This document shows positions 2,223-64,000 of a DNA stretch of 64,000 nt, in pieces. A model generated the notes under the pieces. The model was not told the DNA's origin, did no database searches, and was given only the letters and a program-made list of their open reading frames with translations. Position 1 is the first letter of the stretch; the number at the start of each line of letters is the position of its first letter. A program made the translations under genes and the position numbers. The DNA comes from Ostreococcus lucimarinus (lineage: Eukaryota): the NCBI GenBank assembly GCA_000092065.1, contig CP000591.1. One strand, 5' to 3'.

Positions 2223-3764
2223 TCACGCCGCAACCGATTGAGCGTTCGCGTCGCCGAGCACCGCCTCGCTCGCAGTCGGCGGGGCGAGGATCTTCCTGCT
2301 CTCGTGGAAGTATTGATGCGGCGTGTGCACGCCCGCCTCGATTTCGACGCCGTCGTGAATCGCCGCAAACGTCATACCGCACGCGATTTGGTAGTGCATA
2401 TTCGTCGCCTTCTCGACAATCGCGTGCGACTTAGCACCAGAGATTTTCAACGTACCGAGCAACTCGTGCAAACGTGCGCCGTTATCCTTGACGCCAGACG
2501 TGAGCGTCTTGAACGGACAACCGTGCGCGTCCTTCACGCCCGGATCCGCTGCGATGCACTGACCGCACGCGTGCGGGGTGTAGTTGACGCGCTTCCCTTC
2601 CTTACCGTACGCGTGTCTGATACCATACGCGTAATCTTTTTCAAACTTCTCCGCGGAGCATTTCGGGTGCTTTGTGAACTCTGTCTTCCAAAACACGAGC
2701 GCCTGGTCCAGAGGCAAGCCGATGCCCTTCAAATACAGTTGCAGTTGTCGTCGACCGCCGTGCGTCAGGTGATGATCTTTCTTGAGCGCCTTGTAAAGCT
2801 GGCGCATGCACAGCGGGAAAGACTCTTGCGTGGCTTCGATGCCGGCGATCGACATCGTGCCGTCTTCGCCTTGGAAATCGTACCCGCTTCCCGATCGACG
2901 GTTGTGCACAGATTTCAAAAGCGGCGTCAAACGGTGAGCCTCCTTCTTTTCAAACTTGTTGAAGAGCGTGATGGCTTCGGCGACCATCTTGTTCAGCATC
3001 GTCTTAAACCGACCGAACACGAGTTGATCGAGGGTTTCTTTACGAATCCACGCGTTTCCGCCGATCAAGTACGCCCGTCTCGACTTGACGAGCGGGCACA
3101 CCTCTTCGAAACCGACGACGAACCAACGCGACGCCTCGCTCGCCGCTTCCTCGCACATCCTCTGGTACTCCATCGTCCCGAGCTTACCATCTTTACTGAG
3201 ACTTCGACGCATCTGCCTATACTCGTGGTCCGCCATCAAGACGTCCCGCAAATCGTCCCGTCTCTCCCGCACTTCCTTCTCGCTCGCCCGCGCGTAATCG
3301 TTAAACCCATTCGTCCGCATAAACTCCATCTTCGCGTCCAAACTCAGCTCACCGTACCGATACTTGAACAACTCCAACTCGTTCTCCCGAAACCATCGCC
3401 TGTGTTCTTCGCTTCGACAGCTCGCCAACCTCAACAAAAAATGACTCGTCGCGTCTCTCGCCGCGCCCTCCGCGTCAAACGTCCCCCCCGTCGTCCGTCG
3501 CATGTTATATTCCTCCTCCGCGCTCGCGATCGCCCGTTTCAATTCCTCATCCTTCTTCCCACCGCTTCGCGCGTCGTCGATCGCCCGCAAGACGCCGTAC
3601 CGATCCATCGCCGCGCGCTCCAGGTACTCGATGGAGCGTTCGTCATCCGGCGCGGTGTTGTACGCGTCCAACCGCGCCGCGTTTCCGCCGTACTTTCGCT
3701 CGAGCGCGGTCTTGGCGCGCGCTTCCGCTTTCTCTCGATTCGTGCGCAGCGCGCCGAAGACCAT
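2223..3764 (-). CDS. PRIM2: DNA primase large subunit
   Basis: 513-aa ATG ORF. The C-terminal Fe-S domain signature is LYLKGIGLPLDQALVFWKTEF...YAYGIRHAYGKEGKRVNYTPHACGQCI...HGCPFK. Confidence 0.9.
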   Translation of the reverse strand: MVFGALRTNREKAEARAKTALERKYGGNAARLDAYNTAPDDERSIEYLERAAMDRYGVLRAIDDARSGGKKDEELKRAIASAEEEYNMRRTTGGTFDAEGAARDATSHFLLRLASCRSEEHRRWFRENELELFKYRYGELSLDAKMEFMRTNGFNDYARASEKEVRERRDDLRDVLMADHEYRQMRRSLSKDGKLGTMEYQRMCEEAASEASRWFVVGFEEVCPLVKSRRAYLIGGNAWIRKETLDQLVFGRFKTMLNKMVAEAITLFNKFEKKEAHRLTPLLKSVHNRRSGSGYDFQGEDGTMSIAGIEATQESFPLCMRQLYKALKKDHHLTHGGRRQLQLYLKGIGLPLDQALVFWKTEFTKHPKCSAEKFEKDYAYGIRHAYGKEGKRVNYTPHACGQCIAADPGVKDAHGCPFKTLTSGVKDNGARLHELLGTLKISGAKSHAIVEKATNMHYQIACGMTFAAIHDGVEIEAGVHTPHQYFHESRKILAPPTASEAVLGDANAQSVAA

Positions 3765-3897
3765 GGCGGCGTCGCCGCCGTCGTCGCGCGTCGCCGTGTC
3801 GCGCGATCGTCGAGCTGTCGCCGCGTCGCGATTTCAAATTTCGTGGCGTCGGCGCCGCGCGCGGTGCGATTTCGAGGGTCGGCCTCGCGCACCGCGC

Positions 3898-3915
3898 ACT
3901 GTTTACCCATACGCG
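3898..3915 (+). promoter_or_regulatory. conserved 18-mer ACTGTTTACCCATACGCG (copy 1 of 4 in window)
   Basis: Identical copy at 4022-4039. Near-identical copies (ACTGTTTGCCCAYACGCG) at 31614-31631 and 31682-31699. Confidence 0.5.
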
Positions 3916-4021
3916 CGTCGCGATTTCAAATTTCGTGGCGTCGGCGCCGCGCGCGGTGCGATTTCGAGGCGTCGGCGCCGCGCGCGGTGCGATTTCGAGG
4001 GTCGGACCTCGCGCACCGCGC

Positions 4022-4039
4022 ACTGTTTACCCATACGCG
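4022..4039 (+). promoter_or_regulatory. conserved 18-mer ACTGTTTACCCATACGCG (copy 2)
   Basis: Lies 90 nt upstream of the ATG at 4129. Confidence 0.5.
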
Positions 4040-4128
4040 TCAACGCGCGGACGCGGCGCGACGCGCGACGCGCGCGCGCACGTCGCGACGCGCGCGCGAC
4101 CGCGACCGCGACCGCGCGGCGACGCGCC

Positions 4129-5364
4129 ATGTCCGCGGCGCTGGCGGAGACGATCGCGCGCGACGCCGCGGACGGACGCGCGGGCGAGTACGACCTCGCG
4201 GGATTCGGCGAGGCGTGGGTCGACGCGCTCGTCGAGGCGGCGTTCGCGACGCCGACGCGCGCGAAAGGAGGGTTTTACGCGTCGTGCAAGTTCATCGTCG
4301 GCGGCGGGAAGAAGACGCGGGCGAAGTACGACGATGAGGTGGTGAAACACTTGACGGCGGCGCTGCGCGCGAGGGGGTTCGAGGACGACAGAGGCGCGAG
4401 CGCGTGCGAGGCGTGCCAAGGGACGTATAAGTACCAGCACGACACGGATAAGGATTTAAAATACTTGCACGTGTTTCCGAGGGTGACGCACGAGGCGGAG
4501 GGGGGGGAGGCGGCGGCGGCGGCGGGCGGGACGCAGTCGCCCGAGTATCGCGCGTGCGCGTGCGATTTGGAGGAGTTCGAGCGATTGGTGGAGATGTATT
4601 GTCCGAGCTTTTCGCAAAAGCGCGCGCTGTTGCGCAGGATGAAGGTGATGGAGCACGCGCTCGGGGCGCTGGAACAAAAGGTGATCGCGATGGAGAGCTT
4701 GAATGATCGCGAGCAGACGATGTACGACTCGATGGTTGAAGTCGCGGCGAAGATTGAGTTCTTACAACAGGCGCTGGACGACATGATCAAGAAGGGTCGA
4801 TTGACGAAAGGCGAACAAGGAGAAATCGTCGAAGATTTGGAGCTCAAGCTCGAAGATTTGAACCTGATGGTGAACGAGGCGAACGAGGAGGGGAAGCCGA
4901 AGCGCGCGGAGATGCTCGAGAGCAAGAAGGAAATCGTCGTCAAGAAGATTGACTCGGTGCGCGCGAAACCTCCAATCGTGTACACGGTGCCGCACGAACG
5001 CGAACTTTTGGACTTGAAGAAGGAGCTGAACTCGCTGAAAAAAATTGCCGCACAATCGAAAGGAAAGTTGATGAGCGGTGCGGACGCGGCGAAGTGCGCG
5101 AATATTCCCAAGCTCGAAGAGCGCATAGCGAATTTGGAAAACTCCGAGGAAAAAGGATGGTACGAGGACGAATGCCGAGCGCTTCTCTTTCCACCGGTCG
5201 CCGAAAAGAAAGCACCGGCGAAGGCCAAGGCGAGTGGCGCCAAAACCAATTCGGGATGGCTCACCAAGGCGGCAAAGGGCGGATCGCGCGGCGGAGGTGG
5301 ATCCGCGAAAGCTTCGTCGACTCGTGGTCCTTCCAACCCGTTCGCGATGCTCGGCGACGATTAG
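4129..5364 (+). CDS. hypothetical coiled-coil protein with Lys/Gly-rich tail
   Basis: In-frame ATG at 4129 within ORF 3502..5364; the upstream part of that ORF lies in the promoter repeat. The protein has a globular N-terminal ~110 aa, a long heptad-rich segment (LEDLELKLEDLNLMVNEANEE...) and a basic tail. No family recognised. Confidence 0.55.
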   Translation: MSAALAETIARDAADGRAGEYDLAGFGEAWVDALVEAAFATPTRAKGGFYASCKFIVGGGKKTRAKYDDEVVKHLTAALRARGFEDDRGASACEACQGTYKYQHDTDKDLKYLHVFPRVTHEAEGGEAAAAAGGTQSPEYRACACDLEEFERLVEMYCPSFSQKRALLRRMKVMEHALGALEQKVIAMESLNDREQTMYDSMVEVAAKIEFLQQALDDMIKKGRLTKGEQGEIVEDLELKLEDLNLMVNEANEEGKPKRAEMLESKKEIVVKKIDSVRAKPPIVYTVPHERELLDLKKELNSLKKIAAQSKGKLMSGADAAKCANIPKLEERIANLENSEEKGWYEDECRALLFPPVAEKKAPAKAKASGAKTNSGWLTKAAKGGSRGGGGSAKASSTRGPSNPFAMLGDD

Positions 5365-31213: not shown

Positions 31214-31549
31214 TCACGCGCGCGCGTCGTCGTCGTCGTCGTCCTTCGCCTCCCCCCTCCCCTCCTCCGGCTCGTACTCCACGCGCAGCAGCGCCTCCAG
31301 GCTCTCTCGCTTATACATCAGCGCGTCCCGTTCCTTATCGATGTCCCACGCCTCGCTCGGGTCGTCCGTCCGTCGCCATCGCTTATTCTCCTCGACCCGT
31401 CGTCGCTCATCCTCATCCCAGATCTCATCGTCGTCTTTCTTCGACCACGCGCGCGCGATCGTCGACGTCCCGGTCCCGCGCGCGCGCGCGATCCATCGCG
31501 GCGCGCGCGCGACGACGCGGCACCGCGGCTTCGTCGTCGTCGGCGGCAT
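31214..31549 (-). CDS. small hypothetical acidic protein
   Basis: ATG ORF of 111 aa with a basic N-terminus followed by WDEDERRRVEENKRWRRTDDPSEAWDIDKERDALMYKRESLEALL. No family recognised. Confidence 0.35.
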   Translation of the reverse strand: MPPTTTKPRCRVVARAPRWIARARGTGTSTIARAWSKKDDDEIWDEDERRRVEENKRWRRTDDPSEAWDIDKERDALMYKRESLEALLRVEYEPEEGRGEAKDDDDDDARA

Positions 31550-31613
31550 CGACGAGTGCGGCGGCGTCGACGCGCGCGCGGATCGCGCGGCGCGCGTCGA
31601 AAATCGGTCGCGT

Positions 31614-31631
31614 ACTGTTTGCCCACACGCG
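31614..31631 (+). promoter_or_regulatory. conserved 18-mer ACTGTTTGCCCACACGCG (copy 3)
   Basis: Differs at 2 positions from the 3898/4022 copies and is in the same orientation. Confidence 0.5.
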
Positions 31632-31635
31632 ACGT

Positions 31636-31647
31636 TTTCGCGCCAAA
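31636..31647. promoter_or_regulatory. palindromic double E2F-type site TTTCGCGCCAAA
   Basis: Matches TTTSSCGC on both strands (TTTCGCGC / TTTGGCGC). To my recollection, the classic DHFR-promoter E2F element has the same 12-mer. Confidence 0.5.
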
Positions 31648-31681
31648 TTCATTGACATGTCGCCTCGCACATCGGTCGCGG

Positions 31682-31699
31682 ACTGTTTGCCCATACGCG
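31682..31699 (+). promoter_or_regulatory. conserved 18-mer ACTGTTTGCCCATACGCG (copy 4)
   Basis: Differs at 1 position from the 3898/4022 copies and ends 28 nt upstream of ATG 31727. Confidence 0.5.
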
Positions 31700-31703
31700 A
31701 CGT

Positions 31704-31715
31704 TTTCGCGCCAAA
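31704..31715. promoter_or_regulatory. palindromic double E2F-type site TTTCGCGCCAAA (second copy)
   Basis: Identical 12-mer in the second repeat unit, 12 nt upstream of ATG 31727. Confidence 0.5.
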
Positions 31716-31726
31716 TTCATTGACAA

Positions 31727-32461
31727 ATGTCGCCTCGACGACGCGGACGCGCGACGACGACGCCGGCGCCGACGCGAGAGCGCGTCGCGACGACGGACGC
31801 GACGGCGCGACGGGAGGCGGCGATGACGGCGCGCGCGACGCGCGAGCGCGACGACGGCGCGCGGGCGACGACGGACGAGGGCGGCGCGCGGGCGACGACG
31901 GACGAGGATCGCGCGCGGCTGACAAAGTATTGGTTGCGACGACGGTGCTCGACGGGATCGCACGCGAGCGAGGCGACGGAGGTGGGGATGCTGACGGGAG
32001 GGGAGAGCAGCAACGAGAGCCATCAGGCGACGGGACGGCGAGCGCGACGGGGGGGGTCGGCGTCGGCGTCGACGCCGCCGGGCGCGGGGCGACGCGCGGA
32101 GAGAGGAGGGATCGATACGCCGGGACACTTCGCGTTCGCGACGCCGATGAGCGCGAGGGTGCGCGAGGAGGGGATGACGACGCCGAGAACGCCGACGCTG
32201 GCGAACGATAGTCCGGATCGAGCGCGGTTGGATGAGCTCTTGGCGGCGCCCGTGAAGCCGAATTTCGGTACGCGGGCGGCGATCGAGTGCACGCCGCGAC
32301 ACACGCCGTTGAAGCTGCGATTTGATGATAACGTGGACGTCGTCGTGAGTGGAACGCACGCGACGAGTAAGAAGCGCGCGCGTGGGAAGTTGAGCGATGT
32401 GTTCAAGGCGACCAAGTCGACGACGCCGAGGCTCACGCGCGCGCGAAAGGCGATGTTGTGA
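31727..32461 (+). CDS. hypothetical Ser/Thr-Pro-rich basic protein (candidate cell-cycle-regulated)
   Basis: ATG ORF of 244 aa with multiple S/T-P sites (TPGH, TPMS, TPRTPT, SPDR, TPRHTPLK), an RxxL (RARLDELL) and a basic cluster (SKKRARGKL). The C-terminal half is non-repetitive. No family recognised. Confidence 0.45.
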   Translation: MSPRRRGRATTTPAPTRERVATTDATARREAAMTARATRERDDGARATTDEGGARATTDEDRARLTKYWLRRRCSTGSHASEATEVGMLTGGESSNESHQATGRRARRGGSASASTPPGAGRRAERGGIDTPGHFAFATPMSARVREEGMTTPRTPTLANDSPDRARLDELLAAPVKPNFGTRAAIECTPRHTPLKLRFDDNVDVVVSGTHATSKKRARGKLSDVFKATKSTTPRLTRARKAML

Positions 32462-53633: not shown

Positions 53634-55930
53634 TCAACGTCTTCTAGATCGCTTACGACGCCTGTCCCTGGAGCGCGAGCGCGAGGACGATGAACTATGC
53701 GAGCTCGATCCACTGGATGAACTCGACGAACTACGCGACCCGGAGGTCGAACTCGACGAACTGGAGCTCGAGCTCGACGAACTGGAGCTTGAACTCGACG
53801 AACTCGACGAGCTCCTAGAGCGCTTCGGCACCGTCTTGGGAGCTGTTTTCAACCACTCACGCATGTCCTCAGTAAGCGCACCAAGAGAGATGGAGGTGAA
53901 AAAGTTGATGCTAAACCGCGTGTTGCGAGGCTCGTCCTTGGGCATGATGCCTTGGAAGTACTCACGCATTTCAGGATTTTGCATCTTTTCGTTGAGCTGC
54001 TTCAAACCGAGCGCCTCTGCGAGTTCTTGGAACAGAATCTTGATAAAAATTCGTGAACTTGACGTCGTAGCTTCCTCGGTGAGTTGGATGTATGCCAGAC
54101 ACGTCCACGACATGGCGTCGGTGGCGAGTAAGTGCGCAAAGAATTTTGCCACGTTGCGAAGCTTGTTTGTCTCCAAACGGTGAATCGTACTGTACTGCTT
54201 CATGAAAACTTCGTCGAACAGTTGCGGGTAGATTTTGTGGATGAAACAAAACCGTTGCGCGAGCAAACCGTAGTACCGCAAGTAGGTGCGCTCCTGCGAC
54301 GCACATTCAACGAGCATCGTGCACAACTCTACTTCGGCGCCCGGCGGAATGTTGAGCTTCATCAATTTATGCCCAGCTTCTTCGAAATCTAACGAAGACA
54401 TGATGGTGAGATAAATCGTCCTTCGGAGGTTTACGAGATTTGTCTCCGTGAGATCCGCGATTTCGACCTTGCCATCGCCTCGGCTCGCCACAATGGCGCC
54501 CGCGCCCTCGTCGTCGCTCGACGAAGAACTCGACGACGAACCACTGTCGCTGTCGCTGTCGCTATCGCTCGAGCTCGAGCTCGATTCACCGAGAATTTCC
54601 TTGCGAATGTCTGCATATCGACGCTCGTTTTCCTCAAACTCGGGATCTTCTTTGAACACATCCAAACCAGGCTGCGCTTGCATCTCGTCGTCCAAGCCGA
54701 TTTCGTGCACGATTTGGTCGTCCTCGTCGACCAAATCTAGCTCGGGAGAGACCCCCTTTTTCCCCTCGAATCCACCTTTTCGAAACGCGAACAACCCTTC
54801 GATCATAAACTGAACGCGCTTGTCGATCTCACCTTCGTGTAAAATTCCTCTAAATCGCTCAAAGATGCCGTGCAAACCTTGCGGCGTGAGCTCTTGGAGC
54901 GTGAAGCCGCACTCCTTGACAAAATCAATCGCAACCTCTACGCTGTCGTCCGTGGGAGTGCCTAGCAACACAGTCAATAACTCTAGTGCTATCAACTCGT
55001 GAATGATCTGTCGAGAAAAAAGGTAAACGGTCAATCACCCGCGCTGGAGAAGCGCCCCGTCGCGTCGGCGACCGCGTCGGCGGCGGCGTGACATCAGTGT
55101 TAAAAAGCTCGATATGATTTTGATCCTCACGGGAATCAGTGAGTGTTGCGTGATCATAATTCATCCTCTGTCACATCGCGCGCACCGCGTCGCATCGCGT
55201 CGTCCATCGAGCATCGTACCTGTTGATTAATCAGCGCCGCCAAAAACCTCGTCGCCGCCACGCACACCGGCTTATCGTTCCTCTTATACGCCCGTCTAAA
55301 CTGCAAAACGCATCTCTTCGCGATCAACTCGCCGATTTCAGGAAACTTCGTGTTCACCACCGCCACCAGCGCGGCGAACACACCACTAAACTGCGGCGAC
55401 GCCATCTGAGACTTCATCACGCTCCTCGCGAACAATCCCCGCCCGCGTATCAAATTCTCCTGAAACAGCTCCGGCACCACGTGTTGCACGTTCGACGCGT
55501 TCACCTTATTCACCAATCCATTGATCGATTTCTTCAGCGCGTCCCACGACATGCGTTGATACTCGACGCTCGTCTTATCGTTCGTCTCGCGCATCATCTG
55601 CGCCAGCTTGAACGGCGGCACGTACGCGCCCCCCGTCCTCGTCCCTCTCGCCGCCGTCCCGCGGCTCGCGCTCGGCGCCGTCGCCGTCGCCCTCGCGCGC
55701 GCGTCCGCATCGTTCGCGTCCGGCGCGATCTCTCCTCGTTCGAGCGTCGCGCCGTCGTCGCCGTCGGCGTTCGCGCCGTCCGAGGATCGCCGCCGCCGCG
55801 CGCGATTCGTCGTCGCCTCGCCGCGCGCCGCGTCGCCGCGCGTCGCGCGCGGCGAGCCGTCGCGGCGCGCGTCGCCGTCGCCGTCGTCGTCGTCGCGACC
55901 GCGCGAGCGCGAGCGGCTTCGCGTGCGCAT
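53634..55930 (-). CDS. CWC22: pre-mRNA splicing factor CWC22 (2 exons: 55930..55220 and 55007..53634)
   Basis: MIF4G: YVPPFKLAQMM...FAALVAVVNTKFPEIGELI...RFLAALINQQ | IIHELIALELLTVLLGTPTDDSVEVAIDFVKECG. MA3: NLRRTIYLTIMSSLDFEEAGHKLMKL. The protein is colinear with human CWC22 across the splice junction, and both exons are frame-checked against the ORF track. Confidence 0.9.
55008..55219 (-). other. CWC22 intron (212 nt, phase 0)
   Basis: Donor CAG|GTACGATG. The 3' end is GATTGACCGTTTACCTTTTTTCTCGACAG|ATC. The intron is required to join INQQ to IIHELIALE as in orthologues. Confidence 0.85.
55088..55174 (-). ncRNA. box C/D snoRNA candidate (intron-encoded, 87 nt), 18S rRNA guide
   Basis: The minus strand reads GUGACAG-AGGAUGA-...-CUGA(D')-...-CGAGCUUUUUAAC-A-CUGA(D)-UGUCAC. 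It has a 6-bp terminal stem (GUGACA/UGUCAC) and a 13-nt perfect complement to 18S GUUAAAAAGCUCG adjacent to box D. Confidence 0.55.
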
Positions 55931-56869: not shown

Positions 56870-57751
56870 TCACGAACTCGATGAGCTCGAACTCGAATCG
56901 TCCCTGCGAGAGCGTTTCTTTTCCCTCTTCTTGCGCTTCTTGCGCTCCTTCTTGCGCTCCTTCTTCCGCTTTCGCTCTCGACGGCTTCGCGCGTCTACGC
57001 CGTCGTCGTCGTCGCCGAGCTCCATCTCGTACGTCTTCGTCGCCCCGTGCGATCTCGACAGCGCGTCGAGCCCGCGCGCGGGATTCAACACGCGCGCGCG
57101 TAAACTATCCAAATCCTCCGTCGTCGCGCGCGCGCCGACGTTCGCGCCGCTCCGCGCGCGCTCGAGCCTTCGCGCCTTTTCCTCGACCGCCGCCTTGTAC
57201 GCCTTCGCCGCGCCGTCGTTCGGATCAATCTTCAACGCCCGATCGAAATCCCGAATCGCCTCGGCGTACATCCTTCGATTCGCATAACACGCCCCTCGCG
57301 CGGCGTACGCCCTGACGTGCTCTGGATCGAGTTCCAGCGCCTGCGCGAAGCACCGCTCCGCCTCCTCCCATCGCTCCGCCTTCGTCGCCAGCGCGCCCCG
57401 CAGCGCGCTCTCCTTCGCCCACCCCCATCGCACCCTCGCCCGCGCGCGCTCCATGATCTTCGCCCTCGCCATCTCATCTCGCACCCGTTCCGCGCTTCGC
57501 GCGTCCGGGATCGCGACGCGCGTCACCGCCCGCGCCGCGCCGTGCGCGTCGCACAGCGTTCGCGCCGCGCCGCCGACGCCGAACCCTCTCGACGCGCGCG
57601 CGTCCGCGACGAACGTCGACGCCTCGCCGAGGCGCGCCGCCTCGGCGTACGCTTCGAACGTTTTCGCGTCGCCGTGCGCGTGCGCGCGCGCCGCGCGTCG
57701 TCGCGCGCGCGTCGCGTCGTCCTCGTCCTCGTCGTCCTCGTCGCGCGGCAT
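56870..57751 (-). CDS. TPR-repeat protein with Lys/Arg-rich and poly-Ser tail
   Basis: In-frame ATG at 57751 of ORF 56870..58273. TPR: WEEAERCFAQALELDPEHVRAYAARGACYANRRMYAEAIRDFDRALKIDPND. Tail: RKRKKERKKERKKRKKREKKRSRRDDSSSSSSSS. Confidence 0.65.
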   Translation of the reverse strand: MPRDEDDEDEDDATRARRRAARAHAHGDAKTFEAYAEAARLGEASTFVADARASRGFGVGGAARTLCDAHGAARAVTRVAIPDARSAERVRDEMARAKIMERARARVRWGWAKESALRGALATKAERWEEAERCFAQALELDPEHVRAYAARGACYANRRMYAEAIRDFDRALKIDPNDGAAKAYKAAVEEKARRLERARSGANVGARATTEDLDSLRARVLNPARGLDALSRSHGATKTYEMELGDDDDGVDARSRRERKRKKERKKERKKRKKREKKRSRRDDSSSSSSSS

Positions 57752-57907
57752 CGTCCTCGCCGTCGCGTCGCGCGCGCGCCGCGACGCCGTCGCGCGCGCC
57801 GACCGGGTCGGCGCCGTCGCGTCGCCGCGGCCGTCACCGTCGCCGCGCGCGCGCGCGTGTGCGGCGCGGCGCCGTCGGCCGACGCCAGACGGCGACGCGG
57901 CGACATC

Positions 57908-60900
57908 ATGCCCGGCGCGCGCGACGGCGGCGCCGAGGCCGCGGCGCGGTACCGACAGTACGAGTACAAGGCGGTGCGTGACGACGACGACGCGCGCGCG
58001 CGACGACCGACCGACGCGACGCGCGCGACGACCGCGCGACGACCGAGGGCGCGGCGATCGAGGACGGCGGCGGCGGGCGAACGAATGCGCGACGAAATCG
58101 ACGTCGCCGAGCGCGGACGCGGCGATGAAACGCGCGGTGACCGAAGCGAACGCGCGCGATGTAAACGCGGCGCGACGCGCGAGCGCGGACTGACGAAGAG
58201 GCACGCGCGCGCGACAGAACGCGTCGTTGGTGCTGGAGAGCGATCGACGCGGGCGACCGCGGGGCGAACCCACGGGCGCGCCGGAGTCGCTCGAGGGAAA
58301 GATCGACGCGTCGCGGTTCGGAGATCGAGCGCGAGGCGGGACGGACGGTGATTTCGCGGAAAAACGGGAGCGAGCGGCGAGACGAAGGGCGGAAAAACGA
58401 GCGAGAGGGGACGCGGGGGAGGCGGAGGCGTTCGGGAAGCGCGGCCGAGCGACGAAGGGGGCGAGCGTTCTGGGAGGGAGTGAGTATGGGTTGTATAAAC
58501 CGAAGACGCGGGAAACGCGGGCGGCGTACGAGGGGTTGTTGAGCGTGTTGCAGGGAGTGTTCGGAGATCAACCGCAGGACGTCATGCGCGGCGCGGCGGA
58601 TGAGGTTTTGGCGGCGCTGAAGGAGGAGGGGAAGACGGAACGCGCGAAACAAAAGGACGTCGAGGCGTTGATGGGGACTTTAACTTCGGAGAGATTCGCG
58701 CAAATTACCGCCATCGGGAAGCTGATCACGGATTTCTCTATTCCAGGTGAAGGTGGCGAAGGCGCGGGCGAGGAGTTGGACGACGACATCGGCGTCGCCG
58801 TGGAGTTTGAAGAGGAAGAAGAGGAAGACTCGGACGTGGACGAGGTGTTAGAGGCGTCCGACGTAGACGACGACGACGAAGGCGACGAAGGCGCGTACGA
58901 CGGCGCCGTGGGCGCGAGAGCAGTCGAGGATGAGTACACGCCGAACGCGGACCACGGGTTGAATCCGGCGGACATCGACGCGCACTGGTTGCAGCGCGCC
59001 ATCTCGAAAGCGTTCGGGTTTACGGACTCTGACGCCGCGGAGAGCTTGAAGCTGTCCGAAGACGTATATCAGGTGTTGTCCACCGAAGATGACCGCGAGT
59101 GCGAAAATGCGCTCGTGTCAATGCTCGATTACGACAAGTTTGATTTGATCAAAGTGCTGTTGAAGAACCGACTCAAGGTGTTTTGGTGCACAAGACTCGC
59201 TCGATCCGCGAGCGAGGAAGAAACCGCGAACATCGAGGCGCAAATGAAAGCCGATCCGGCCGCTGCTGGGATTTTAGCGTCCATGCGCGCGACGCGCGCG
59301 TCCGCACGCGATCGACAGACGGCGACGGAGCAAAAGATTCGCGAAGAGGCTCGCAAGCTTCGCGGCGAAGTCGCGGAGATGCGAACTCAAGGCGGCGCCG
59401 CTGCGGCTGGACGTCAGCTTTTGGAGCTCGACGCGCTTGCCTTCGTGCAAGGTTCGCATTTTATGAGCAACAAGCGATGCGAGCTTCCGCCCGGTTCGTT
59501 TAGAAGCGCCAAAAAGGGTTACGAAGAAGTACACATACCGGCGCTCAAACAGCCACCGTTCAACGACGACGAAGCGCTCCGTGCGATTGAAGAAATGCCA
59601 GAGTGGGCGCAACCTGCGTTTGAGGGCATGAAGACGTTGAATCGCATTCAGAGTCGCGTGTACGAATGCGCATTGCTTTCGCCAGAGAACATGCTTCTCT
59701 GCGCGCCGACGGGCGCGGGTAAGACGAACTGTGCGATGTTGACTATTTTACATGAAGTTGGTCTTCACCGTCGTCGTGACGGGAGCGTCGATACGTCTGC
59801 GTTTAAGATCGTGTATGTTGCGCCGATGAAAGCTCTCGTCGCAGAAATTGTGGGCAACTTGAGTAATCGTTTGAAGACCTTTGGGATCCAAGTGCGAGAA
59901 TTGACGGGCGACGTTTCGCTGAGTAAGGCTGAAATTGAAGCCACGCAAATCATCGTTACCACGCCAGAAAAATGGGATATTATCACTCGAAAGTCTGGTG
60001 ATCGCGTGTACACGCAGCTCGTCAAGCTTATCATCATCGATGAAGTCCATCTCTTGCACGACGACCGCGGTCCCGTGCTCGAATCCATCATCGCGAGAAC
60101 GGTGCGACAAGTTGAGACGACGCAAGAAATGGTCCGTTTAGTCGGTCTTTCTGCAACGCTGCCAAACTTCGAGGACGTTGCGACGTTTATGCGAGTAAAC
60201 CCTGAGAAGGGGTTGCACGTTTTTGACAACTCGTACCGCCCGTGTCCTTTGCAGCAGCAATACATCGGCGTCACGGTGAAGAAGCCGTTGCAGCGAATGC
60301 AACTCATGAATGAAATTTGCTACGAAAAGGTGATGGAAAGTGCGGGCAAGAGTCAAGTACTCGTATTCGTACACAGTCGTAAGGATACGGCGAAAACCGC
60401 GAAAGCTCTTAGAGATTTGGCGATGGAGAACGAGACTCTAGGAAAGTTGATGCGTGACGATTCGGCGAGTCGTGAAATTTTACTCACCGAAGCCGAGACG
60501 GTGAAGAGCTCCGAGCTGCGTGATTTGCTCCCGTACGGGTTCGCCATACACCACGCCGGTATGAGTCGCGCTGATCGTACATTAGTAGAGGAGCTCTTCG
60601 GCGACGGTCACGTGCAAGTGCTCGTCTCCACGGCGACGCTCGCGTGGGGGGTCAACCTGCCCGCGCACACCGTGATCATCAAGGGCACGCAAGTGTACAA
60701 CCCCGAAAAGGGTGGTTGGGACGAGCTTAGTTTCCAAGACGTCATGCAAATGATGGGTCGTGCGGGTCGGCCGCAGTTTGACACGTTCGGCGAAGGTATC
60801 ATCATCACGCAACACTCCGAGTTGCAGTACTACCTGTCGCTGTTCAACCAACAGCTCCCCATCGAATCTCAATTCGTCAAGCAGCTCGCCGACGCTTTGA

Positions 60901-63900
60901 ACGCCGAAATTATTCTCGGTACGATTCAAAACGTTCGTGACGCGGTGATTTGGTTAGGGTACACGTATTTGTTTGTTCGCATGTTGCGAAACCCAACGTT
61001 GTATGGCGTGTCGGTGGATGCTGTCGAGGACGACCCCGTGCTCGAACAGCGAAGGTCAGATTTGATTCATACTGCTGCGGCGCAACTAGATAAGAGTGGC
61101 CTTATTCGCTACGATAGGCGAAGCGGTGCATTACAAGGCACTGACTTAGGTAGAATTGCTTCAACGTACTACGTCTCTCATGGCACGCTCATGGCATTCA
61201 ATCAACACTTGAAGCCTACGATGGGCGACATCGAGCTGTGTCGTCTATTCTCTCTCGCCGAGGAGTTCAAGTATATTAGTGTGCGGGAGGAAGAAAAGAT
61301 GGAGCTGTCAAAGCTCGCTGAGCGAGTGCCAATTCCAGTGAAAGAGTCGATCGAGGAACCGACGGCGAAGATAAACATTCTTCTCCAGGCGTACATCAGT
61401 AACATGCGCCTCGATGGGTTTGCGCTCATGTCCGACATGGTTTACGTGACGCAGAGCGCAGGTCGCATCTTGCGTTGTATTTTCGAAATCGTACTCAAGA
61501 AGGGTTGGTCGCAACTCGCTGAGAAGTCATTGGCGCTGTGTAAGATGTGTGCTCGCAGAACGTGGGCTTCACAAACGCCGCTGCGTCAGTTCTCCGCTAT
61601 ACCTGTGGACGTCTTGCAAAAGATTGAACGAAAAGATTTAGCGTGGGATAGGTATTACGACTTAAGTAGTCAAGAAATTGGCGAGCTTATGCGAGCGCCA
61701 AAGCTCAGTAAGGCTTTGCATAGATTCATTCATCAGGTTCCTCGATTAGAGCTCTCGGCGCACGTGCAGCCGATCACGCGAAGCGTGCTCAAGGTGGATT
61801 TGAACATCCAACCGGACTTCATTTGGGACGAATCTGTACATGGGTACGTCCAGGGCTTCTGGATCATTGTGGAAGATAACGATGGCGAAAATATCTTACA
61901 TCACGAGTACTTCTTACTCAAGGGGCATAACGCGGAAGAAGAGCACGGAGTGTCATTCACGGTGCCTTTGTCCGATCCACTGCCACCGCAGTATTTCATT
62001 CGCGTCGTCAGCGACAATTGGTTGGGAAGCGACACGGTGATTCCGGTTTCGTTCAAGCACTTGATGTTACCCGAGAAGAATCCACCGCCAACGGAGCTTC
62101 TGGACTTGCAGCCCTTACTCGTGAGCACTCTCAAAGCAGATGGCTACGACGAGCTTTACGCCGGTCGGTTCACGCACTTTAACCCGATTCAAACCCAAGT
62201 CTTCCAATGCCTGTACAACACAGATGAAAACGCCCTCGTTGGTGCACCGACGGGGAGCGGGAAGACGGTATGCGCGGAGTTTGCGATCATGCGATCACTT
62301 ATGACGAATCAGGATGGACGTTCCGTGTACATGGCGCCGACGGCGACGCTTGCTGATGAACGATACGACGACTGGAGCTCGAGATTTGGGGCGCTTGGCG
62401 TCTCCGTCACCAAGCTCACGGGTGATACGACGGCGGATCTGAAATTGTTAGAAAAGGGACAAATCGTCATCACCACACCGCAACAGTGGGACGTCATAAG
62501 TCGTCGATGGAAACAGCGAAAGAACGTACAAACGGTGTCGCTGTTTATTGCGGATGAACTTCAGCTCATAGGCGGTTCCAACGGTCCGACGATCGAAGTC
62601 GTCGTCTCGCGTATGCGTTACATGTCGAGTCAACTGGCGAAACCTGTCAGAGTGTTGGGTTTGTGTACCTCGTTAGCAAACGCTCGCGACTTGGGCGAAT
62701 GGATCGGTGCGAGTTCTCACGGCACGTTCAACTTTTCTCCGGGCGTTCGCCCAGTGCCACTCGAGATCCACTTCCAAGGCGTAGATATCATCAACTTTGA
62801 GGCGCGAATGCAGGCCATGGCGAGACCAGTGTATGGGGCGATTGCGAATCATTGTCGTCGATCGGAGCCGTCGATTGTCTTCGTGCCTACGCGTAAGCAC
62901 GCGAAGTTGGCGTCTCTCGACTTGCTCGCGTTTGCCGCTGCGGAGGGCGAGCCGGGTCGGTTCTTACAAGTTGAAGAAGGTGATCTCGAGCCTTACTTGG
63001 CGCAAATATCTGATGAGTCTGTACGCCATGCCCTGACGTTTGGCGTCGCGCTTATTCACGAAGCCATGAGCGAAAAGGAGCGAAAGGTTGTCGAACGAGT
63101 GTTCGCCGTCGGTGCGGCGTCTGTGCTCGTCGCCACTGCGCCCCTGGCTTGGGGACTCACGACTCCCTGCAAGCTCGTGGTCATCATGGGGACGCAGTAC
63201 TACGACGCCGGGGGTGCTGGTGCGGCGGATTATCCAGTGACGGATCTTCTTCAAATGATGGGCCGTGCATCCAGACCTGGCATCGACGATGCCGGTGTGT
63301 GTTTACTCTTGTGTCACGCGCCGAGGAAGGAATACTACAAGAAGTTCCTCTTCGAACCGTTCCCTGTCGAGTCGCACCTCGATCACTTCTTGCACGATCC
63401 CATGGTGGCTGAAATTGTCACGCGCACGATCGAAACGAAGCAAGACGCCGTGGACTACATCACGTGGAGCTTCTACTACAGGCGACTGACGCAGAACCCG
63501 AACTACTACAATCTCACCGGCGTTTCGCACCGCCATCTTTCCGACGCTCTTTCCGAGCTCGTCGAAACGACTTTGGGTGACTTGGAGGCGAGCAAATGTA
63601 TCAGCATCGAGGACGATATGGATTGCGCTCCACTGAACCTCGGGATGATTTCCGCGTACTACTACATCACGTACACGACGATTGAACTCTTCGCCGCTTC
63701 GCTCACGGCGAAGACCAAACTGAAGGGTTTACTTGAAATCGTTGCCGGTGCGACTGAATTCGAGTCCTTTGCCGTCAGACCGGGCGAGGCAGATATGCTT
63801 CGACGCATACTCAACCACGCGCCGATCACGTTATCAAGCAATAAAACCACGGATCCGCATGTCAAGGTCGCCGCTCTTCTCCAGGCATACTTTGGCCGAA

Positions 63901-64000
63901 CGAGCATTCACGGCGACTTTACGCAAGACTTGCAAAAGATTTTGCCCGACGCAACGCGCCTGCTCCAAGCTATGGTCGATGTCATCTCATCTAACGGATG
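57908..64000 (+). CDS. BRR2: U5 snRNP 200-kDa helicase BRR2/SNRNP200 (exon 1 57908..57973, exon 2 58218..>64000; 3' end beyond window)
   Basis: The protein is colinear with human SNRNP200: RYRQYEYKA|NASLVLESDR (human RSLQYEYKANSNLVLQADR), YKPKTRETRAAYEGLL, CAPTGAGKTN, DEVHLLHDDRGPVLE, GAPTGSGKT and ...MVDVISSNG at the edge. The frame stays open to 64000. The gene is absent from the ORF track because it has no stop in the window. Confidence 0.9.
57974..58217 (+). other. BRR2 intron 1 (244 nt, phase 0)
   Basis: Donor GTGCGTGACG, branch-like GGACTGACGAAG 25 nt upstream of the acceptor CGACAG. Removal restores the conserved YEYKA-N junction. Confidence 0.8.

Follow-up and report, generated by a model that had tools for sequence, protein, structure and literature searches.

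A tandemly duplicated candidate promoter module with palindromic E2F-type sites upstream of an orphan gene in a probable Mamiellales picoalga

The locus and its 68-bp tandem duplication

The DNA analyzed, designated here as the window, is a stretch of 64,000 nt, CpG-rich and with a GC content of 52–71 % (2-kb bins), containing long, mostly intron-free and tightly packed ORFs. Their products are ordinary eukaryotic and plastid-type proteins, including Tim44, a SET/LSMT-like protein, spermidine synthase, an ABC-D transporter, LHC, starch phosphorylase and the large subunit of DNA primase, which is the sole clear replication gene within the window. The best named match of this primase subunit is from Ostreococcus tauri (69 % identity), whose primase locus shows the same microsynteny as the window; the match and the microsynteny suggest that the host belongs to the picoalgae of the order Mamiellales.

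The features of interest occupy, or flank, a 273-bp intergenic region between a small gene on the minus strand and a divergent orphan gene on the plus strand:

31214–31549, minus strand: small conserved divergent gene of 111 aa, with its ATG at 31549 and ca. 70 % identity across four lineages, sharing the intergenic region with the orphan gene
31593–31599: left-flank microhomology CGCGTCG, matching the CGCCTCG that closes each copy (31661–31667 and 31731–31737)
31600–31667, plus strand: copy 1 of the promoter unit, 68 bp, a direct repeat (from Tandem Repeats Finder, TRF, and pairwise alignment of the copies)
31614–31631, plus strand: core motif of copy 1, ACTGTTTGCCCACACGCG
31636–31647: distal palindromic double E2F-consensus site, TTTCGCGCCAAA
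31652–31657, plus strand: distal TTGACA, 8 nt past the E2F 8-mer
31657–31659, plus strand: upstream ATG created by the duplication, in frame +1 with respect to the CDS and opening a 184-codon ORF
31668–31737, plus strand: copy 2 of the promoter unit, 70 bp, equivalent to the lone copy of most haplotypes (from TRF, copy alignment and population alignment)
31682–31699, plus strand: core motif of copy 2, ACTGTTTGCCCATACGCG, whose relative position is kept in L013 and L008
31704–31715: proximal palindromic double E2F-consensus site, TTTCGCGCCAAA, 108–119 bp upstream of ATG 31823
31720–31725, plus strand: proximal TTGACA, 8 nt past the E2F 8-mer, a spacing shared with L013 and L006
31727–31729, plus strand: upstream ATG specific to one haplogroup, sharing the frame of the CDS, to which it would add 32 aa; not the conserved start
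31823–32461, plus strand: conserved CDS of the orphan gene, for a predicted disordered, basic protein of 212 aa with nine S/T-P sites

An earlier note on this DNA, made from the sequence alone, described a unit of about 68 bp occurring twice back to back as part of a promoter or 5′ module, and both aspects of this description were borne out. TRF delimits the repeat at 31603–31737 (period 68, 2.0 copies, 94 % matches, score 240), and the alignment of the two copies (68 and 70 bp) shows four substitutions and a 2-nt AA indel. The sub-elements listed in that note were all in place, including CATTGACA and ATGTCGCCTCG (with the ATGs at 31657 and 31727), and each copy holds ACTGTTTGCCCAYACGCG, which corresponds to the core motif, followed by TTTCGCGCCAAA, TTGACA and ATGTCGCCTCG. 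The position of the repeat between two divergent genes supports its assignment to a promoter region, and a search of Rfam with the region retrieved no match.

The comparison among lineages indicates that the small minus-strand ORF is a real gene and, with the plus-strand ORF ending at 32461 on the other side, the repeat would thus sit in a bidirectional promoter. Gene order is kept at the loci of metagenomic relatives (Tim44, SET, the small gene when present, the target orphan gene, spermidine synthase and ABC-D), and the small divergent gene is absent from the L008, L011 and L015 loci.

Copy number and translation start

The same orphan protein is encoded by 14 sequences, comprising the window and 13 informative metagenome contigs. 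Comparing the number of repeat copies in related strains had been suggested in the earlier note, and this number does vary, with haplotypes having either two copies or one. Two copies are present in the window and in contigs L001 and L002, each of these sequences with private SNPs, and a single copy in ten contigs (L003, L016–L020 and L022–L025). These counts come from metagenome assemblies, where short repeats are liable to be collapsed or wrongly scaffolded, and in L018 a scaffold gap falls at the exact spot. Copy number is unreadable in L004, where the contig begins too near the gene, and in L021, which is masked at the spot. No haplotype contains a three-copy allele, and the 68-bp duplication is absent from every other lineage compared. 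As judged from these assemblies, the duplication is a segregating polymorphism, with copy number differing among haplotypes of one species-level population.

The two copies are nearly identical, indicating that the duplication is young. It was probably generated at the microhomology CGC(G/C)TCG, either by slippage during replication or by unequal exchange, and the triplet CAC found at the junction is an allelic variant of the left flank in other haplotypes. The duplication could be functionally neutral, a result of slippage in intergenic DNA that is rich in CpG and prone to repeats, and devoid of regulatory consequence, which is compatible with the E2F site being functional. We regard this as a possibility to be taken seriously, if somewhat doubtful. 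Short tandem repeats indeed abound in the window (309 TRF rows), microhomology bounds the copies of this young repeat, and the duplicated allele is in the minority, with no further expansion to three copies. Nevertheless, promoter segments bearing the core motif have been duplicated independently at least four times: upstream of the target gene (68 bp, twice), upstream of the primase large-subunit gene of the window (123 bp, twice), in the orthologous promoter of L013 (a 41-nt repeat at 122-bp spacing) and upstream of a primase small-subunit gene in L132 (32 bp, twice). This recurrence hints at more than chance and, additionally, doubling a cluster of transcription factor sites usually alters output.

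Between positions 31550 and 31830 there are only three ATGs, at 31657, 31727 and 31823. The earlier note took the second one as the start of the CDS, duplicated together with the rest of the module, so that the first one would open an overlapping uORF. The reading frame itself was as described, since ATG 31657 opens a 184-codon ORF in frame +1 with respect to both ATG 31727 and ATG 31823; the duplicated start codon and the uORF, however, did not hold up in the comparison among haplotypes. ATG 31727 is limited to the haplogroup formed by the window and L001–L004; ten of the 14 informative haplotypes, counting the window, lack it and encode an identical protein from Met33. At this spot the other haplotypes read GACATCTCGCC, GACATCGCC, GACAAGCGTCGCC, GACACTCGCC or GACAAACGTCGCC, with length differences that are not multiples of three, and L024 and L025 contain further frame-breaking indels between 31727 and 31823, again with an identical protein from Met33. 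Close relatives (P0003 and P0004) begin with MATARRE…, at the position equivalent to Met33, which corresponds to ATG 31823, and the spacing of 75–165 bp between E2F site and start codon in the orthologues fits 31823 rather than 31727. The lack of conservation of ATG 31727, the frame-breaking indels and the start of the relatives thus identify ATG 31823 as the conserved start, for a protein of 212 aa. Since ATG 31727 is restricted to one haplogroup, both copied ATGs appear to be young upstream ATGs, and probably neither is the real start.

The alternative of a true start at ATG 31727, copied by the duplication and leaving ATG 31657 as the out-of-frame start of an overlapping uORF that throttles translation, appears quite unlikely to us from the evidence above. 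In its favor, both ATGs exist with a purine at −3, the uORF would run for its 184 codons with no further ATG between 31550 and 31823 apart from these two, and the arrangement would hold for transcription started by the distal copy at a point upstream of 31657. Initiation near TTCATTGACA, on the other hand, would leave each of these ATGs at 0–8 nt from the cap, where they would be poorly used. A short Logan contig (L026) was considered as transcript-like evidence for the transcription start site and discarded, because it is genomic and carries the convergent neighboring gene.

The E2F-type site and the orphan protein

The 12-mer TTTCGCGCCAAA fits the E2F consensus TTTSSCGC on both strands, as the earlier note had pointed out. 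Its comparison with the DHFR promoter was also correct, because the 12-mer is the E2F element of DHFR, where it is a proven E2F site (Transfac entry R01928, ATTTCGCGCCAAA; also a DHFR EMSA probe), as was its claim that the window has canonical paired sites at this place only: TTTSSCGSSAAA has two matches, against 0.18 expected, and none elsewhere in the window. Both matches derive from a single duplication, however, and amount to one independent occurrence, which is not significant by itself, and the window shows no enrichment of the plain 8-mer TTTSSCGC, with 32 matches versus 39.9 expected. The significance of the site comes, therefore, from its conservation across lineages and not from counts within the window.

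All seven orthologous lineages (the window, L013, L014, L006, L008, L011 and L015), spanning 45–100 % protein identity, contain TTTSSCGC between −165 and −75 relative to the conserved ATG, in the following forms:

Window, L014 and L006: TTT(T)CGCGCCAAA(A)
L013 and L008: TTTCCCGC
L011: TTTTCCCGCC
L015: TTTTGGCGCCAAAA

The proximal TTTCGCGCCAAA at 31704–31715 is invariant among all the haplotypes. In the distant lineages the flanks of the site have diverged until they are not alignable, and the site itself drifts only within the consensus (TTTCGCGCCAAA, TTTCCCGC, TTTTCCCGCC and TTTTGGCGCCAAAA). As a control, we counted 14 TTTSSCGC sites in the upstream regions of the target gene (1593 bp in total) versus one site in 3543 bp of neighboring intergenic DNA from the same loci, where a single region out of 14 was positive. 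The palindromic form was confined to the upstream region of this gene family in a scan of 771 kb of related contigs. The arrangement with the neighboring element is also recurrent: the 8-nt spacer between the E2F site and TTGWCA is identical in three lineages (window, L013 and L006), and TTGACA or TTGTCAA occur near the E2F site in L011 and L015 as well. The site is thus conserved in orthologous promoters beyond background, as would be expected of a promoter regulated by E2F/DP, and this comparative evidence supports well the existence of a functional E2F-type site.

A factor different from E2F/DP might instead bind the palindrome, or the palindrome might serve mainly the divergent small gene at 31214–31549. 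The promoter is bidirectional in this lineage, and palindromes rich in GC are often targeted by other factors. Nevertheless, the three lineages lacking the small gene (L008, L011 and L015) retain the E2F site, which indicates that the site belongs to the target gene. Moreover, the site varies and yet stays within TTTSSCGC (TTTCCCGC, TTTTCCCGCC, TTTGGCGCC), as the specificity of E2F predicts, unlike what would be expected for a factor recognizing a CGCG core. We consider, in consequence, that binding by another factor or a main role for the small gene is improbable.

Ostreococcus has a working RB/E2F pathway, with its components described and an E2F motif reported in the cyclin B promoter of this genus (PMC2873908); the window itself contains none of the genes for E2F, DP and RB. 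The canonical site is absent from the promoters of the primase large subunit in four lineages, indicating that E2F sites are not a general mark of S-phase promoters in these organisms.

The product of the orphan gene did not show any match in Pfam, and its family profile retrieved no sequence match from the PDB at E ≤ 10. Word-indexed searches identified 19–23 related metagenomic proteins, and an exhaustive HMM search found eight representatives among 1.84 billion proteins; the gene was absent from the annotated reference proteomes searched. The protein is predicted to be disordered, with a single short helix in the AlphaFold model (pLDDT 50.6), and has a net charge of +14 with a basic C-terminus. 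The abundance of S/T-P sites noticed earlier stands, with six of the nine sites being invariant, and the NLS-like cluster corresponds to a conserved basic cluster, KKRxR; the RxxL motifs, by contrast, are not conserved as a D-box. Other short conserved motifs are YWLRRR, FAFATP, ARLxxLLAPxKPN, TPLKLRF and [LVM]SD[VH]FKATKSTTPRxTRA. We take TPLKLRFD to resemble the Cy (cyclin-docking) motif of Rb, and [LVM]SD[VH]Fxxx-K presumably resembles a PIP degron; the most distant member of the family, P0262, does not contain the SD of the [LVM]SD[VH]F motif. The S/T-P sites and the conserved motifs of the protein fit, but do not prove, a putative CDK-regulated protein.

The core motif, a promoter model and known systems

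The core motif is overrepresented in the window, where ACTGTTTRCCCAYACGCG occurs four times, always in promoters, against 0.16 expected, and it also recurs in metagenome contigs. Besides the two copies upstream of the orphan gene, the others are situated in the divergent promoter of the primase large-subunit gene:

3898–3915, plus strand: core ACTGTTTACCCATACGCG, in copy 1 of a 123-bp tandem repeat
4022–4039, plus strand: second copy of the core in the same 123-bp tandem repeat

In the promoter of the target gene, the core keeps its relative position in L013 as well as in L008, whose protein is only 52 % identical. A scan of metagenomes with the 15-mer ACTGTTTRCCCATAC identified at least 120 contigs, often with several matches per contig. 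About a third of the core occurrences (41 of 114) are situated within stereotyped introns, in units with a median length of ca. 78 nt (range 68–149) and the layout GGTACGTATTG…TTTCCCAAATCC…core…AAGACTGACAC…pyrimidine tract…CAG. These units run from a GT donor to an AG acceptor, have a CTGAC branch point and a pyrimidine tract, and contain the 15-mer as their invariant core. Splicing them out in silico was weakly discriminating, with 34 of 44 reading frames open after splicing versus 15 of 44 when unspliced, for a random baseline of 56 %. Most of the remaining occurrences fall in short stretches between genes, close to gene starts. Among them, the promoter of the gene for the small subunit of DNA primase (L132) has a tandemly duplicated core with an E2F consensus nearby. 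It was unexpected to find the promoter 15-mer ACTGTTTRCCCATAC shared by the promoters of both primase subunits and by the introner-like introns of related algae.

The ACTGTTT core was considered as a general S-phase element and rejected, despite its presence upstream of the genes for both primase subunits. Neither O. tauri nor two other lineages have the core in their primase large-subunit promoters, it adjoins many unrelated genes, and it does not generally co-occur with E2F sites (4 of 73, with about 6.6 % expected). A literature search with the core sequence returned nothing relevant.

The unit as a whole could also be a mobile element, or a derivative of one, akin to the introner-like introns with the ACTGTTTGCCCATAC core, its duplication being then due to transposon activity. 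Pointing in this direction are the presence of the 15-mer as the invariant core of intron units in many related contigs, a core copy situated 89 bp from a Harbinger/PIF transposase gene (L138), and the reports of degenerate introner fragments beside coding sequences (PMC3879977; PMC4815162). The similarity is restricted, however, to 15–18 nt, and an examination of the sequence and folding of the 68-bp unit revealed no splice sites, TIRs, TSDs or unusual fold. Additionally, the retention of the core position in L013 and in the divergent L008 is indicative of long-term maintenance rather than of a recent insertion, and the window, with its long intron-free ORFs, contains no cores outside promoters. 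We therefore rejected a mobile origin of the unit for its lack of TIRs and of any special fold, and deem it very unlikely.

We favor, with moderate confidence, the explanation that the module is the composite E2F promoter of a lineage-restricted orphan gene, duplicated in a minority haplogroup. The core promoter of the gene (CDS 31823–32461) would consist of three short elements in fixed order: the 18-nt core ACTGTTTGCCCATACGCG, the overlapping inverted E2F/DP pair TTTCGCGCCAAA and, 8 nt further on, TTGACA. Binding of the palindrome by E2F/DP, under control of the RB pathway, would direct transcription at the G1/S phase, and the product of this E2F-driven gene would be a disordered protein rich in CDK-type sites. 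As for the history of the allele, ATG 31727 would have arisen first, by a point mutation in one haplogroup, and the tandem duplication of 68 bp with all three elements would have followed, probably by the slippage or unequal exchange indicated above. ATG 31657 would then be an out-of-frame copy of ATG 31727, and both ATGs by-products. In the two-copy allele the composite modules lie 68 bp apart; the effect of the duplication would most likely be quantitative, either by increasing E2F occupancy or by providing a second initiation zone, and may well be nearly neutral.

Two other readings, independent of each other, are put forward as conjectures that we consider unlikely to be right. According to the first, ACTGTTTRCCCATAC would be recognized by an abundant factor of the host that, for example, opens chromatin or marks promoters. 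The sequence may then have been kept and repeatedly duplicated in the promoters of the intron-poor Mamiellales, among them those of the present orphan gene and of the two primase subunits, while forming the core of introner-type introns in related lineages; either introners may have captured a host promoter element or promoters may have domesticated introner fragments. According to the second, the orphan product would be a clade-specific S-phase regulator, controlled by E2F and removed via a PCNA-dependent degron.

Should E2F regulation be true, the orphan gene would be among the most clearly E2F-marked genes of its clade, and a lineage-specific, disordered protein rich in CDK sites would be added to the very small cell-cycle toolkit of the Mamiellales picoalgae. 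The natural alleles with one and two copies offer a ready test of the effect of E2F site dosage on expression in wild phytoplankton, and the occurrence of one 15-mer in both promoters and introner-like introns bears on the sequence source, or the binding target, of intron-generating elements. Current understanding would remain unchanged unless these predictions are confirmed experimentally.

Introner elements (IEs) have been described in Micromonas (PMC4815162; PMC3879977; PMC4540971), including non-intronic partial copies near genes (PMC3879977; PMC4815162). The introner-like introns from related contigs, which match the Micromonas IEs by their published descriptions, have as their conserved core the 15-mer ACTGTTTGCCCATAC that is also part of the promoter unit. 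The unit in the window differs from IEs in being intergenic, without intron architecture and lacking the other IE modules, and does not qualify as an introner element.

The targets of E2F in plants and algae include S-phase genes with TTTSSCGC in their promoters, and the orphan gene likewise has the consensus within about 200 bp of its start codon; unlike what would be expected from these systems, the primase large-subunit promoters compared here do not contain it. In the DHFR promoter, the E2F site is located at the transcription start site. The DHFR element consists of overlapping inverted sites with a 12-mer, TTTCGCGCCAAA, identical to that found here, and the likeness extends to a position close upstream of the coding region and to a TATA-less, GC-rich promoter. 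The present case differs in that it concerns a green picoalga and an orphan target, in having two extra conserved flanking elements and in being duplicated within a 68-bp unit. Copy-number polymorphisms of promoter tandem repeats (VNTR-like) tune expression. As in VNTR-like promoters, a short segment with transcription factor sites occurs here in one or two copies among natural haplotypes, although with only two allelic states. The module is, in sum, an E2F-site promoter combined with a tandem-repeat polymorphism of a promoter, both being of known kinds.

Repeated promoters carrying the core

The core, a motif of 15 to 18 nt within the 68-bp promoter unit of the orphan gene, recurs in the window in the promoter of the DNA primase large subunit gene, where it lies in a tandem repeat.

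window 2223-3764, minus strand: primase large subunit gene
window 3838-4079: tandem repeat of the primase large-subunit promoter, between two divergent genes
window 4129-5364, plus strand: gene on the other side of this promoter

The repeat consists of a 123-bp unit in two tandem copies (83%), with a 31-bp unit nested inside it in about 5.7 copies, and each 123-bp copy carries the core ACTGTTTACCCATACGCG together with the element GATTTCAAATTTCG. This element is the counterpart of a palindromic TTTGAAAATTTTCAAA-type element that O. tauri and two further lineages have kept in the promoter of the primase large subunit; the element contains TTTGAA, which is CHR-like. No canonical E2F site occurs in this promoter (window 3838-4079).

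The promoter of the primase small-subunit gene (PF01896) from another lineage, on metagenome contig L132, contains a 32-bp tandem duplication (91%) with a reverse-oriented core in each copy, near an E2F consensus.

L132:7072-7135: tandem duplication in the small-subunit promoter
L132:7172-7183, minus strand: E2F consensus TTTTTCGCGCCA

The orphan-gene orthologue of sister lineage L013 also has a direct repeat in its promoter, with degenerate copies of 41 nt (71%) spaced 122 bp apart, whose end is the start of the core.

L013:2012-2052 and 2134-2174: direct repeat

The L013 repeat is older than the 68-bp duplication of the window, the same promoter segment having been duplicated independently.

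Open reading frames at the core and other features of the window

The reverse complement of the core (GT ATG GGC AAA CAG T) contains ATG GGC AAA CAG, so that mechanical callers yield spurious ORFs starting with MGKQ at every core.

window 31318-31626 and 3539-3910, minus strand: MGKQ ORFs
L098:2006 and L132:7117: positions of MGKQ ORFs

In L132 the call of the primase small-subunit gene is thereby lengthened upstream, past the likely true start at about 7382.

window 31214-31549, minus strand: small divergent protein gene
window 55089-55165, minus strand: SNORD36-like C/D-box snoRNA match (Rfam)

The small protein, which matches nothing in Pfam, is strongly conserved, with core DDEIWDEDERRRVEENKRWRRTDDPSEAWDIDKERDALMYKRESLEALLR; its N-terminus resembles a transit peptide, and its gene adjoins the orphan gene in only some lineages. 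The snoRNA match, which adjoins the 3′ end of ORF 55154-55930, is borderline, scoring 36.6 bits where the gathering score is 30, with an E-value of 0.033. From ca. 57000 to 64000, GC falls to 0.52-0.60 and the heuristic ORF search yields hardly any long ORF, in contrast to the remaining window; this region could hold intron-rich genes or be a segment of distinct composition.

The core near a transposase gene and in repeated introns

On contig L138, a core 15-mer copy is separated by 89 bp from a transposase gene, making a connection of the core with a DNA transposon possible.

L138:854-2449, minus strand: Harbinger/PIF-type transposase gene (PF04827, PF13359)

Additionally, metagenome contigs L027-L146 (e.g., L039:3043-3119, L029, L076 and L094) contain repeated introns of a stereotyped build, all of which share ACTGTTTGCCCATAC as an invariant core. 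These introns have a median of ca. 78 nt (range 68-149) and reach up to 4 per 12 kb. In them a GT donor is followed by TTTCCCAAATCC, a branch point CTGAC, a pyrimidine tract and the AG acceptor, and they look similar to the introner elements of Micromonas.
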